Under the pieces are notes generated by a model, which saw only the letters and a list, made by a program, of their open reading frames with translations, made no database searches and was not told the origin of the DNA. Shown here piece by piece: positions 1,520 through 19,547 of a stretch of DNA of 64,000 bases. Position numbers and translations under genes: made by a program. This stretch comes from Actinomycetes bacterium (GTDB lineage Bacteria > Actinomycetota > Acidimicrobiia > Acidimicrobiales > JAKAOS01), in contig JAJYWE010000001.1 of assembly GCA_021791675.1 (NCBI GenBank), forward strand, positions 79,526-143,525. The letters run 5' to 3'. Position 1 is the stretch's first letter, and every line of letters starts with the position of its first letter.

Positions 1520-1558
1520 CAGGTGGTTCTGGGCTCAGGTGGTTCTGGGCTCAGGTGG
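1520..1558. repeat. perfect 16-nt tandem duplication (CAGGTGGTTCTGGGCT x2 plus a 7-nt partial third copy) spanning the nrdR stop codon
   Basis: Read directly: copies at 1520-1535 and 1536-1551, partial copy 1552-1558. The nrdR TGA (1537-1535, minus strand) sits exactly on the copy1/copy2 junction. Confidence 0.9.
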
Positions 1559-2032
1559 GACTTCGGTCGTGCCGTTTCCTCCCGGCGGATCGCCGAACAG
1601 GACCACTTCCTCCTGGAACGCCCGCACGTCGGCAAAGTCCTTGTAGACGCTCGCAAACCGCACAGCTGCGACCGCGTCGAGCGAGCGGAGTCGCTCCAGG
1701 ACGAGCTGGCCGATCTCGGCCGAGGACACCTCAACTCCCCGCAGCCTGACGCAGTCCTCCACCTCCACCGCGAGTAGCTCGAGCTGTGCAGCCGCAACCG
1801 GTCGGTTCTTCGTCGCCGCGCGAGCACCCGCGACGATCTTGGCACGCTCGAACGGCTCCCGGCGGCCCGATCGCTTGCGCACGGCGAGCACGAGCTCCTC
1901 GAGTCGCTCGTAGGTCGTGAACCGGCGCCCACAGTGAAGGCACTCGCGGCGCCGCCGAATCGCTGCCCCCTCCTCGGCCACTCGGGAGTCCACGACCCGG
2001 TCCTCCGAGCCGAGGCAGGCCGGGCAACGCAC
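1535..2032 (-). CDS. nrdR: transcriptional repressor NrdR (zinc ribbon + ATP-cone)
   Basis: The N-terminus MRCPACLGSEDRVVDSRVAEEGAAIRRRRECLHCGRRFTTYERLEE is the NrdR zinc ribbon, followed by an ATP-cone. GTG start. Confidence 0.93.
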   Translation of the reverse strand: MRCPACLGSEDRVVDSRVAEEGAAIRRRRECLHCGRRFTTYERLEELVLAVRKRSGRREPFERAKIVAGARAATKNRPVAAAQLELLAVEVEDCVRLRGVEVSSAEIGQLVLERLRSLDAVAAVRFASVYKDFADVRAFQEEVVLFGDPPGGNGTTEVPPEPRTT

Positions 2033-2158: not shown

Positions 2159-2623
2159 CTACTCCGGCGCGGGACGGAGGTCCAGGGCGAGGCGCGCCGG
2201 CAGCGGGAGCGGGTGGCCGGCCTCTTCGATGGCGGTGGCCGCTCCTCCGAGCCGCCTCCCGCGTCCGGCTACCACGGCCTGCGCGCTCGAGTGCACGGTG
2301 GCGCGGCGGCCCGGTCCGGCCTGCGGCCCGCCCAGCCGCAGCGCGAGACCGGCCACCGCCAGCGCCACACCGAGCGTCATGGCGCGGCGCTGCTGCGCCG
2401 TCGCCGACCGCGCTCCCCCCCGCCGACCCCGACCCGACCCACCAACACCGCGGTCCACCGCGACACGATCGAACTGCGCCCCCGGTCGAGCCGGCGTCGC
2501 CGGGCGCACGAGATGCCCGGAGAACCACTCCACGTCAGCCGGCAGAGCTGGAGGCGGTCCTGCCTCACCCCGGCGAGGCTCCACCCACCAGGTCTCAGGC
2601 CGTATCGAACAGGTGTTCGCCAT
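2159..2623 (-). CDS. candidate SOS-regulated small membrane protein (positional analogue of DivS/ChiZ): Arg-rich N-terminus, one TM helix, ~55-aa tail
   Basis: ATG at 2623 is preceded by TTGACA-17 nt-AACCAT-6 nt (leaderless geometry), and LexA boxes overlap the spacer and codons 2-7. There are 13 Arg in the first 80 aa, then the hydrophobic segment MTLGVALAVAGLALRLGG. GC3 is high from there to the stop. I recognised no family, and other frames are also open, so this is tentative. Confidence 0.45.
   Translation of the reverse strand: MANTCSIRPETWWVEPRRGEAGPPPALPADVEWFSGHLVRPATPARPGAQFDRVAVDRGVGGSGRGRRGGARSATAQQRRAMTLGVALAVAGLALRLGGPQAGPGRRATVHSSAQAVVAGRGRRLGGAATAIEEAGHPLPLPARLALDLRPAPE
2605..2620. 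promoter_or_regulatory. LexA (SOS) box 1, TCGAACAGGTGTTCGC
   Basis: Matches the actinobacterial SOS consensus TCGAAC-N4-GTTCGA. It overlaps codons 2-7 of the minus-strand ORF that starts at 2623. Confidence 0.8.
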
Positions 2624-2629
2624 GAGCCC

Positions 2630-2658
2630 ATGGTTGCACGAACATCTGTTCGTGTCAA
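2630..2658 (-). promoter_or_regulatory. putative promoter of the 2159-2623 ORF: -35 TTGACA (2658-2653), 17-nt spacer, -10-like AACCAT (2635-2630)
   Basis: Read on the minus strand: cccTTGACcccTTGACA-CGAACAGATGTTCGTGC-AACCAT-GGGCTC-ATG. The spacer coincides with SOS box 2, and the -10 element ends 6 nt before the ATG. Confidence 0.5.
2638..2653. promoter_or_regulatory. LexA (SOS) box 2, ACGAACATCTGTTCGT
   Basis: CGAAC-N4-GTTCG core. It lies between the -35 and -10 elements of the minus-strand promoter candidate. Confidence 0.8.
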
Positions 2659-2781
2659 GGGGTCAAGGGAACGAGCACGGCACCCGGAGTCGATCCGGGC
2701 TCACCGGCCTTCCCTCGATCCGAGCTCACCGACCTTCGTCCGGACGCCGCTGCAGCCCTTGCGCCGCGACCACGTCACGCC

Positions 2782-2803
2782 TATGCTACGAACACCCGTT
2801 CGA
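2782..2803 (+). promoter_or_regulatory. lexA promoter -10 (TATGCT) followed directly by LexA box 3 (ACGAACACCCGTTCGA): autoregulation site
   Basis: TATGCT at 2782-2787 and the SOS box at 2788-2803, about 115 nt upstream of the lexA ATG. Confidence 0.75.
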
Positions 2804-2917: not shown

Positions 2918-3592
2918 ATGGCTCGGCACGGGGCGGCAGGGAGCAGCGGGGCAGGGAGTCCGAACGAGGCACGGCTGACGGCGAAGCGTCGAGCCATCCT
3001 CGAGTTCATCGAGTCCGAGCTCCGGCGGCGCGGCTATCCACCCTCCGTACGAGAGATCGCGGATGCGGTCGGCCTCGCGTCACCGTCCACCGTCCACGCC
3101 CACCTGGCCACGCTCCAGCGGCAAGGGTACCTCCGACGAGACCCCGCCAAGCCCCGGGCGATCGAGGTTCGTCTCCCGAGCCACCAGGACGGCCCCGCCC
3201 CGGTCCGTCCGGTTGTGCAGGTACCGGTTGTCGGGCAGGTCGCGGCAGGCACTGACGTGCTGGCAGAGGAACTGGTCGAGGAGGTGCTCCCCCTCCCCGC
3301 AGACCTGACGGGTGGCGGACGGCTGTTCGCCCTTCGCGTCCGCGGCGACTCGATGCGCGATGCCGGCATCCTCGACGGTGACCTGCTCGTGGTGCGGTCC
3401 CAGGTCGAGGCGCCCCCAGGCTCGATCGTGGTCGCCGGCATCCCCGGCGAGGAGGCGACGGTGAAGCGCTACGAGCCCAAGGGCGCGACCATCGTCTTGC
3501 GCCCCGAGAACCCGGCGTACGAGCCCATCGTGCTCCCGGCGGACGAGGTTCGCCTCTACGGGCGTGTGGTGAGTGTGTTGCGCCGCCTCTGA
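2918..3592 (+). CDS. lexA: LexA repressor (SOS regulator, S24 peptidase)
   Basis: 224 aa with the winged-helix region LTAKRRAILEFIESELRRRGYPPSVREIADAVGLASPSTVHAHLATLQRQGYL and the C-terminal S24 domain (VRGDSMRDAGILDGDLLVV ... ATVKRY). AAGGAGG upstream of the ATG. Confidence 0.96.
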   Translation: MARHGAAGSSGAGSPNEARLTAKRRAILEFIESELRRRGYPPSVREIADAVGLASPSTVHAHLATLQRQGYLRRDPAKPRAIEVRLPSHQDGPAPVRPVVQVPVVGQVAAGTDVLAEELVEEVLPLPADLTGGGRLFALRVRGDSMRDAGILDGDLLVVRSQVEAPPGSIVVAGIPGEEATVKRYEPKGATIVLRPENPAYEPIVLPADEVRLYGRVVSVLRRL

Positions 3593-18286: not shown

Positions 18287-19360
18287 TCAGTCTTCGAGCG
18301 TGATGGGCGCGCCCTCGTCCGTCGGTGCCACACCAGCCGTTACGACGGGCGCCACGACCTGACGCACGCGCTCGTAGAGCTCGACCATCAGCTCCGGGCT
18401 CTCGGAGAGGAACGACTTGGCGTTCTCCCGCCCCTGACCGAGCTGCTCTCCCTCGTAGGTGTACCAGGCTCCCGACTTCTTCACGATGCCCGCGTCCACA
18501 GCCACGTCGAGCAACGAGCCCTCGCGGGAGATTCCTCGCCCGTACATGATGTCGAACTCACAGGTGCGGAAGGGCGGGGAGACCTTGTTCTTCACCACCT
18601 TCACCCGGGTCCGGTTCCCGACGATCTCGGCCCCGTCCTTGATCGACTCGATGCGACGGATGTCGAGACGGACGGAGGAGTAGAACTTGAGCGCCCTTCC
18701 CCCCGGCGTCACCTCCGGCGAGCCGTACATGACGCCGATCTTCTCGCGGAGCTGGTTGATGAAGATGGCGATGGTCGAGGACTTCGACAACGTCGCGGTC
18801 AACTTCCGCAGCGCCTGGGACATCAGGCGAGCCTGGAGCCCGACGTGTGAGTCGCCCATCTCGCCCTCGATCTCGGCGCGAGGCGTCAACGCAGCCACGG
18901 AGTCGATCACGACGACGTCGAGCGCACCCGACCTGATCAGCATGTCTGCGATCTCGAGGGCCTGCTCTCCAGTATCGGGTTGGGAGATCAGCAGCTCGTC
19001 GATGTCCACGCCGATGGCCTTGGCGTAGACCGGGTCCATGGCGTGCTCGGCGTCGATGTACGCGGCGATCCCGCCGGTGCGCTGCGCCTCGGCGACGACG
19101 TGCATCGCGAGGGTCGACTTCCCGGATGACTCGGGCCCGTAGATCTCCACCACTCTTCCGCGGGGGAGCCCGCCGACCCCGAGCGCGACGTCCAGTGCCA
19201 TCGCACCCGTCGAGATCGCCTCGATCACCATGTGGGTGTTCTCGCCCATCCGCATCACCGAGCCCTTGCCGAACTGCTTCTCGATCTGGCTGAGCGCCAT
19301 CTCGAGCGCCTTGTCTCGCTCCACCGCACTCCCTTTCTGCTCGTCAGTCCTTCTGGCCAT
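18287..19360 (-). CDS. recA: recombinase RecA (no intein)
   Basis: 357 aa with [22 protein letters not shown], Walker [12 protein letters not shown] and the rest of the protein colinear with RecA. The 520-aa track ORF is an upstream artefact. Confidence 0.97.
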
Positions 19361-19522: not shown

Positions 19523-19547
19523 AGTGTACTTCCGAACGTGCGTTCGG
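19523..19547 (-). promoter_or_regulatory. recA SOS box CCGAACGCACGTTCGG followed 3 nt later by -10 TACACT
   Basis: CGAAC-N4-GTTCG at 19533-19546, read on the minus strand, about 175 nt upstream of the recA ATG. It is also 88 nt upstream of the divergent CDF gene. Confidence 0.8.

Follow-up and report, generated by a model that had tools for sequence, protein, structure and literature searches.

Gene organization of the locus

The DNA studied here is a stretch of 64,000 nt (64 kb), referred to as the window, from contig JAJYWE010000001.1 (assembly GCA_021791675.1) of an actinomycete of the order Acidimicrobiales, with a G+C content of 72.8%. In the gap between nrdR and the divergently oriented lexA gene, the window contains a small open reading frame (ORF), hereafter the slot ORF, which is predicted to encode a membrane protein and is considered here as a candidate SOS-regulated inhibitor of cell division. 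The features of this locus are the following:

1535..2032, minus strand: nrdR (Pfam Zn_ribbon_NrdR 2.2e-20, ATP-cone 3e-15), downstream of the slot ORF and on the same strand
2159..2623, minus strand: slot ORF, predicted small bitopic membrane protein of 154 codons (stop codon inside the coordinates), positional homologue of ChiZ-like genes encoding a transmembrane (TM) helix and a LysM domain
2162..2323, minus strand: predicted extracytoplasmic tail, 54 aa, Ala/Gly/Arg/Pro-rich, no LysM
2324..2380, minus strand: predicted transmembrane helix, residues 82-100 (MTLGVALAVAGLALRLGGP), Kyte-Doolittle maximum 1.66 (19-mer 81-99)
2381..2440, minus strand: juxtamembrane Arg-rich segment, residues 62-81, net charge +6; RRGGARSAxAxQRRA is kept in the sister-species contigs L089 and L175
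2605..2620: SOS box 1, TCGAACAGGTGTTCGC, spanning codons 2-6 of the slot ORF and one base (the first) of codon 7, about +4 to +19 of the proposed transcript
2621..2623, minus strand: ATG proposed as a leaderless start codon, located 6 nt downstream of the −10-like hexamer and 29 nt downstream of the −35
2630..2635, minus strand: −10-like hexamer AACCAT of the slot promoter, weak (A2 and T6 only)
2638..2653: SOS box 2, ACGAACATCTGTTCGT, filling the −35/−10 spacer of the minus-strand promoter
2653..2658, minus strand: −35 hexamer TTGACA of the slot promoter, identical in L089 and L175
2759..2787, plus strand: lexA promoter, TTGCGC (2759-2764), 17 nt, TATGCT (2782-2787)
2788..2803: SOS box 3, ACGAACACCCGTTCGA, putative lexA operator, directly after TATGCT
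2918..3592, plus strand: lexA (Pfam LexA_DNA_bind 2.7e-24, Peptidase_S24 3.4e-30), with an AAGGAG Shine-Dalgarno sequence 6 nt upstream

The order nrdR and slot ORF on the minus strand followed by lexA on the plus strand was the same in the 60 other loci compared below.

SOS boxes and promoters

The first-pass annotation of this DNA had reported three matches to the SOS box TCGAAC-N4-GTTCGA in the gap, and all three were found at the positions listed above. With up to two mismatches allowed, this motif matched the window 11 times (2.9 expected). Its core, CGAAC-N4-GTTCG, gave four perfect matches in the 64 kb against 0.14 expected, and none of 100 shuffled sequences reached that number. Three of the perfect cores are those of the nrdR-lexA gap, and the fourth (19533-19546) precedes recA (18287-19357, minus strand; Pfam RecA 1.8e-141) by about 176 nt. 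The boxes are not due to chance, and the four perfect cores are all located at SOS loci. For the LexA motif of this organism, the recA box serves as a positive control within the window itself.

The minus strand from 2666 to 2653 reads TTGACCCCTTGACA. Its TTGACA is followed by a 17-nt spacer, CGAACAGATGTTCGTGC, which is box 2 minus its first base, and then by AACCAT (2635-2630), GGGCTC and the ATG at 2623-2621. This confirmed the arrangement TTGACA-17-AACCAT-6-ATG previously proposed for this strand, and box 1, which had been placed over codons 2-7, was found to end at the first base of codon 7. The slot gene would therefore carry, by sequence match, a LexA operator as in the ChiZ/YneA class, formed by two perfect-core boxes, one in the spacer and the other downstream of the proposed transcription start. 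Boxes 1 and 2 are spaced 33 bp, the commonest spacing in the panel of relatives being 33-34 bp. On the opposite strand, the TATGCT that had been indicated as the −10 of lexA does lie directly before box 3. The gap is wider in the window clade (886 bp) than in most loci, and the lexA operator stands apart there, 150 bp away from box 2.

The predicted slot protein

Residues 1-81 of the slot protein include 13 Arg, 9 Pro and 11 Gly, and Kyte-Doolittle analysis gave a single hydrophobic stretch in the whole sequence. The charge around the helix is +6 over the 20 residues before it and +2 over the 12 after it, and single-sequence AlphaFold2 modelling placed a helix at residues 76-97 with a predicted local distance difference test (pLDDT) score of about 60-70. 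These data agree with the earlier description of a 154-aa ORF having an N-terminus with 13 Arg, one helix and a tail of about 55 aa.

By sequence, the slot protein is an orphan. It had no Pfam match at E ≤ 1, and its tail had neither a Pfam nor an NCBIfam match. A phmmer search of 1.84 billion cluster representatives retrieved, at E ≤ 0.001, only its own 73-aa cluster and two giant low-complexity proteins. Rfam and PDB searches did not give any match, nor did a word-indexed homologue search with the slot ORF, which was discounted because it missed the identical 73-aa entry present in the collection. On all conspecific contigs, the sole product predicted by gene callers was a "hypothetical protein" of 73 aa that begins inside the slot ORF, at ATG 2380, and a database look-up indicated that the 154-aa form is absent from the records.

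Conservation in sister species

A LexA identical to that of the window was found on contigs of several assemblies from uncultured organisms, including GCA_027410865.1, GCA_041825655.1, and GCA_027458845.1. The closest named relatives are metagenome-assembled genomes (MAGs) assigned to Acidimicrobiales or to "Actinobacteria bacterium", with 65-68% LexA identity. Contigs of sister species were reached through LexA and NrdR homologues at 84-91% identity. Among them, L089/L090 are partial and extend from lexA to just past the helix. L175 is a 29-kb contig with the whole slot, whose NrdR is 90% identical to that of the window and whose 240-aa LexA matches P0003, a protein 89% identical to the window LexA. 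Finally, L176, with an NrdR of 84% identity, contains only the C-terminal part of the slot.

The −35, the boxes and the start codon stay between sisters, unlike the sequence around them, which diverges. TTGACA and box 2 are kept in L089 and L175; the CGAAC and GTTCG arms of box 1 are kept in L089/L090 and L175, with a few spacer or flanking bases changed; and the start position is occupied by ATG in the window and L089 and by GTG in L175. The aligned −10-like hexamers are AACCAT (window), GAGCGT (L089), and GATCTT (L175), with only A2 and T6 in common. Box 3 is identical in L087, L089, and L175 and the lexA −10 is kept, the aligned lexA promoter of L089 being TTGCAC-17-TACGAT. Conservation of the ORF and of its box/promoter geometry had been suggested as a check in the first-pass annotation, and both were kept in the sisters. 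The leaderless-type layout itself, besides being present in two sister species, recurs in 12 distant LysM-bearing loci.

The slot frame is open from the start codon in the window, L089, and L175, and no other frame remains open in all three between the promoter-proximal start and the end of the helix. Box 1 determines the first eight residues of the protein. The region RRGGARSAxAxQRRAMxLGVALAVAGLALRLGGPQAGPGRRAT is near-identical across the sister species, and the DNA of the helix is about 95% identical to that of L175. How quickly the N-terminal segment changes is shown by L175, in which 42 nt of it are duplicated in tandem and in frame (L175:2930-3010), giving PRASSRRVG twice. Within the clade, the tail can be recognized as homologous (shuffle z of 9.6 between the window and L175 and of 2.8 between the window and L176) but is poorly conserved, and the stop codon is shifted by eight codons in L175.

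Coding evidence and start codon

The ratio of non-synonymous to synonymous substitution rates (dN/dS) was calculated by the Nei-Gojobori method for the window and L175 over 88 gap-free codons. In the slot frame it was 0.49 overall, 0.24 over the 43 juxtamembrane and helix codons, and 0.51 over the 45 codons of the tail. Three of the five other frames gave values of 1.3-2.3, and the antisense partner frame, which had a similar value as would be expected (0.51), has a stop codon in L175. Neither the seven conspecific copies nor the three species showed a broken slot frame, and the sole indel was the 42-nt duplication. That the N-terminal ~60 codons are also coding is weakly suggested by the sequences compared.

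Other frames of the region were considered and rejected. The antisense ORFs (2213-2869, 2229-2978, and 2068-2625, all on the plus strand) did not give any Pfam match, and the partner frame among them is the one stopped in L175. An overlapping minus-strand frame starting at TTG 2658 or ATG 2631 (93 aa) has a higher G+C content at third codon positions (GC3) in its N-terminal part but stops in L089 and L175. In the window, the third minus-strand frame opens only from 2528 onward.

No Shine-Dalgarno sequence was found before any of eight in-frame ATG/GTG candidates, including ATG 2380; lexA has AAGGAG and the thiolase gene GGAGG. A conserved Arg cluster lies upstream of Met82, and every LysM-bearing homologue also has an Arg cluster before its helix. 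For both reasons, the missing internal Shine-Dalgarno and the Arg cluster on the 5′ side of Met82, the long ORF originally proposed fits the data better than the annotated 73-aa product. For leaderless translation in mycobacteria, it is both necessary and sufficient that the mRNA begins with ATG or GTG (PMC4633059).

The slot in other Actinomycetota and the absence of LysM

A panel of loci was assembled through LexA in a genome collection and through NrdR, among the matches listed, in a metagenome collection. It comprised 60 loci from other species, all with both genes, always divergent and 430-1860 bp apart. The NrdR-based scan of metagenome contigs did not reveal close relatives among the matches listed. 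Seven of the gaps were inspected by eye, and they contained an ORF with a variable N-terminus, an Arg cluster (often YRRRR), one helix and the motif GDTLWxIA...PGQxIxIP, which Pfam identified as LysM, above its curated threshold in five of the seven. With a LysM hidden Markov model (HMM) built from nine of these positional-homologue domains, an ORF with a transmembrane helix and LysM was detected on the nrdR strand of the gap in 59 of the 60 non-conspecific loci. The earlier assignment of the slot ORF to the ChiZ/DivS position between lexA and nrdR is well supported by this survey. The LysM-bearing relatives also gave sub-threshold NCBIfam matches to the YneA model.

The slot ORF is collinear with the LysM-bearing ORFs up to the helix, sharing the variable N-terminus, the Arg cluster and the transmembrane segment. 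Of the ChiZ-like layout formerly attributed to it, the Arg-rich N-terminus and the helix stand; a LysM is missing. At maximum sensitivity, the LysM HMM found nothing above noise in the six frames of the 64-kb window, and the same result was obtained with the conspecific contigs. The remark in the first-pass annotation that the C-terminus has no clean LysM was borne out by Pfam and by the family HMM, and it extends to a clade of at least three species. An hhalign comparison of the clade with the LysM family gave a probability of 12.9%, with a collinear alignment limited to the Arg cluster, helix and linker, which stops before the LysM core. Shuffle tests of the tail against LysM gave z values from −0.4 to 2.4, and two of the 12 were nominally significant (p = 0.044 and 0.017), which correction would remove. 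A possible LysM remnant seen by eye in the +1 frame (PGSALRVALV, past the stop), similar to the last strand of LysM, was discarded, because no frame rose above the HMM noise and the sisters do not keep it. Since none of the three species has LysM, its loss probably predates the split of the window species and the two sister species.

L026 (2388-2807, minus strand), from an actinomycete MAG with 40% G+C, was the only other of the 60 loci without a LysM in the slot. Its slot ORF encodes 139 aa, is Lys/Ser-rich with a hydrophobic end, had no Pfam match, and may be an independent replacement of the slot gene.

Regarding the promoters, a TTGACn adjoins an SOS box in 45 of 61 loci, and in 17 of those 45 an in-frame ATG or GTG is found 28-36 nt after the −35. 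A second box lies right after the start codon in 14 of the 61 loci, which include the window, L175 and 12 more distant LysM-bearing ones. L171, a distant locus of this last type, has TTGACA-17-CACCAT-gggccc-ATG-AAC-CGAACACTTGTTCG, nearly the arrangement of the window. Exactly two SOS boxes were present in 42 of 62 gaps (other species plus the window and L175; L007-L175), and lexA and the slot gene apparently share two boxes in most gaps. In L095, L097, L103, and L104 the same layout of −35, box, −10, ATG or GTG (RTG) and box is present, but the RTG is not in the frame of the LysM ORF, for which the earliest in-frame start comes 64-73 nt after the −35. This out-of-frame RTG may be a tiny leaderless upstream ORF or a transcription-start context.

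Comparison with known SOS division inhibitors

The slot gene was compared with ChiZ (Rv2719c) of Mycobacterium tuberculosis, which lies between nrdR and lexA, divergent from lexA. Both have in common this position, an SOS box in the promoter and an Arg/Pro/Gly-rich N-terminus before one helix. In the slot protein this N-terminus, probably disordered, has 81 residues with 13 Arg, and the helix is a predicted one. In ChiZ, the disordered N-terminus has 64 residues, also with 13 Arg, and is followed by the transmembrane helix, a linker and LysM (PMC7355643). A passage of the same article, citing Vadrevu et al. (2011), states that the N-terminus and helix of ChiZ suffice for filamentation. Unlike ChiZ, the slot protein is without LysM and without detectable similarity to proteins outside its own species. 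The probably leaderless dual-operator geometry is described here for the slot gene.

The slot ORF has the lexA-adjacent and divergent position of the ChiZ/YneA class but not its C-terminal LysM (PF01476). The YneA protein of Bacillus subtilis is a small bitopic SOS inhibitor whose gene likewise adjoins lexA and diverges from it. YneA reaches FtsW through its transmembrane domain, and AlphaFold 3 models put ChiZ and SosA on the same FtsW helix (PMC13396833). In contrast with the slot protein, YneA lacks a long Arg-rich N-terminus and has a LysM that it needs, since peptidoglycan binding by this domain is required for the inhibition of division (PMC13396833).

DivS and SosA lack LysM (PMC6851548; PMC3989709), and the attributes of this second class (lexA-adjacent, LexA-boxed, single-pass, and LysM-less; PMC6851548) were all found in the slot gene at the sequence level. 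DivS (Cg2113/CgR_1759) of Corynebacterium glutamicum is an SOS-induced suppressor of division encoded beside lexA (PMC6851548; PMC3989709), and SOS control is likewise predicted for the slot gene. DivS was not retrieved by the slot protein in the phmmer search of the 1.84 billion representatives. Judging from the loci compared, the LysM-less state of the slot gene is a loss separate from that of DivS and recent, the relatives of the slot protein being LysM proteins. SosA of Staphylococcus aureus is also encoded next to and divergently from lexA and has one helix and an extracellular C-terminal segment without LysM (PMC6851548). It differs in having 77 aa, with the helix near the N-terminus and an extracellular part needed for activity, whereas the slot protein has a long cytoplasmic N-terminus and its tail is the less conserved part. 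No sequence similarity between them was detected by phmmer. The library-wide search (E ≤ 0.001) thus yielded no match to DivS or SosA besides the cluster of the slot protein itself. However, this class is defined by function and not as one family, so the missing homology does not exclude membership by function. As another likeness to the slot gene, SosA orthologues of different species are only 25-60% identical (PMC6851548). From its sequence features, the slot gene appears to fit the functional class of the LysM-less DivS and SosA, among the small SOS-induced membrane inhibitors of division encoded next to lexA in Gram-positive bacteria.

Features of nrdR and tandem repeats

The nrdR gene lies 126 nt from the slot ORF, on the same strand, and a scan of the region did not find any terminator-like site between them. 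Its start is most likely GTG 2032, since the Zn-ribbon profile then covers residues 1-42 completely; in the MAGs, gene callers chose GTG 1993 instead, for a product of 152 aa. On the minus strand (2032-2050), 7 nt 5′ of GTG 2032, there is a TAGTGT hexamer that is kept in L175 and L176, so that nrdR too seems to be leaderless and to have its own promoter. The 3′ end of nrdR overlaps a perfect 16-nt tandem repeat, CAGGTGGTTCTGGGCT (2.4 copies, 1520-1558), which encodes a non-conserved C-terminal extension of NrdR. A second tandem repeat, of 25 nt (TCGATCCGAGCTCACCGACCTTCCC, 1.9 copies, 2690-2737), lies between both divergent promoters. It is absent from the sister species L089 and L175, the alignment gaps being located there.

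Favoured and alternative explanations

We consider, with a probability of about 60%, that the slot gene encodes a LexA-repressed, probably leaderless, 154-aa bitopic protein, and that it is the positional descendant of a ChiZ/YneA-type SOS division inhibitor which has lost its LysM. Its role as a division inhibitor would follow by analogy with the known systems. The earlier interpretation was partly supported, as the position, the architecture and, at the level of sequence, the regulation that it predicted hold.

Several observations weigh against this explanation. The −10-like hexamer is weak, and an E. coli-type promoter scan did not call any promoter there, as AACCAT shares just three of its six bases with TATAAT. 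The out-of-frame RTG of four relatives means that the position of an RTG alone is no proof of a start codon. The N-terminal ~60 codons have a GC3 of 0.69-0.79, compared with 0.81-0.93 in neighbouring genes, and an open frame as long as this part is not rare at such a G+C content; after the first eight residues, the next ~60 cannot be aligned between sister species. The slot protein has no sequence homologue outside its own species among the 1.84 billion representatives, and its AlphaFold2 model is of low confidence (mean pLDDT 48.5), too low for a fold search. Within the species, nine variant codons were found in the slot ORF, of which seven are non-synonymous and two synonymous, while the four flanking genes had one non-synonymous and six synonymous changes; the polymorphism of the slot ORF, at ~2% of sites, is several-fold denser than that of these genes. 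A dN/dS near 1 had been named in the first-pass annotation as evidence against the ORF: the juxtamembrane segment and helix, with 0.24, are constrained, whereas the unalignable N-terminus and the within-species 7:2 ratio go in the other direction. Since YneA needs its LysM, the loss of this domain could also mean that the slot protein has lost its function.

Some of these observations would suit a decaying remnant, that is, a ChiZ-like gene that is drifting to a pseudogene after losing LysM and whose operators and promoter persist for lexA or nrdR. A LysM missing where 59 of 60 relatives keep it, the dense and mostly non-synonymous polymorphism within the species, the tail with its dN/dS of 0.51 and shifted stop, the hypervariable, low-GC3 N-terminus and the LysM requirement of YneA (PMC13396833) are all in its favour. 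We nevertheless regard decay as unlikely, since the 43 juxtamembrane and helix codons are constrained, the frame is unbroken in three species and in seven conspecific copies, a start codon persists (ATG, ATG, and GTG), and the ChiZ N-terminus and helix are, in the passage of PMC7355643 mentioned above, enough for activity. In addition, box 1 is inside the ORF and 168 bp from the lexA operator, and it is hard to explain as an operator of lexA because this gene has its own box 3.

The other two alternatives concern what is made from the slot promoter. The true product might be the annotated 73-aa protein, the upstream part then being a 240-nt SOS-regulated leader. This protein is called in all MAG annotations, the coding signal is strongest from about codon 66 on (GC3 0.89 and low dN/dS) and a Met is kept at its first position in L089 and L175. 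Its start lacks a Shine-Dalgarno sequence, however, and the segment RRGGARSAxAxQRRA, constrained in the slot frame, would be left outside the protein, as would the Arg cluster that precedes the helix in all LysM-bearing homologues. With a helix beginning at residue 2, it would have no positive cytoplasmic anchor, and the conserved RTG 6 nt after the −10 is a further point against it; we find this product improbable. More improbable still is that the promoter serves mainly for SOS control of nrdR through a long untranslated leader, with an incidental ORF. The short distance to nrdR on the same strand and the lack of a terminator-like site between them are consistent with such a leader, but the frame-specific constraint and the conserved membrane helix would be left unexplained. 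In 59 of 60 relatives the slot is occupied by a genuine protein-coding gene, and a conserved TAGTGT belonging to nrdR itself is found 7 nt ahead of the nrdR GTG. Co-transcription of the slot gene and nrdR is plausible and compatible with the LexA-repressed bitopic protein favoured here, without replacing it. In C. glutamicum, divS and nrdR presumably form one LexA-controlled operon.

Proposed mechanism and significance

In the SOS response, DNA damage leads to RecA-stimulated self-cleavage of LexA. According to the explanation favoured here, LexA dimers in undamaged cells would occupy box 2, in the spacer, and box 1, at +4 to +19, separated by 33 bp or about three helical turns, and box 3, directly after the lexA −10, would mediate lexA autoregulation. 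After DNA damage, cleavage of LexA would free both divergent promoters. The slot transcript would start at or next to ATG 2623 and be translated without a leader, and its product would be inserted with the N-terminus inside and the C-terminus outside, having a disordered Arg-rich cytoplasmic N-terminus, one helix and a short low-complexity outer tail. By analogy, the juxtamembrane/helix module may act on the late divisome (FtsW/FtsI/FtsQ) and delay septation. The slot gene is most likely, as far as its sequence and context can tell, the SOS checkpoint effector of this lineage. One possibility for the fast-evolving N-terminus and tail is that they are under diversifying rather than relaxed selection.

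It is conceivable, although we hold this with less than even confidence, that the clade represents a natural LysM deletion in which the dual operators, the leaderless start and selection on the Arg-rich and transmembrane module have been kept. One clade would then have done without LysM over evolutionary time, its juxtamembrane and transmembrane module staying under constraint, which fits the ChiZ truncations and contrasts with YneA. If the slot protein still arrests division, the ChiZ-like proteins of actinobacteria would have this module as their minimal inhibitory unit, and LysM would be accessory in them, unlike in YneA, where it is required. LysM-less SOS inhibitors such as DivS and SosA were already known, and the slot gene is an addition to this functional class. 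Genomic context also corrects the annotation of a truncated 73-aa "hypothetical protein". More generally, the nrdR-[TM-LysM]-lexA module is stereotyped across uncultured Actinomycetota, and its promoter layout, −35, box, −10, RTG, and box, could serve as a signature in the search for fast-evolving inhibitors of division under SOS control that escape detection by homology.

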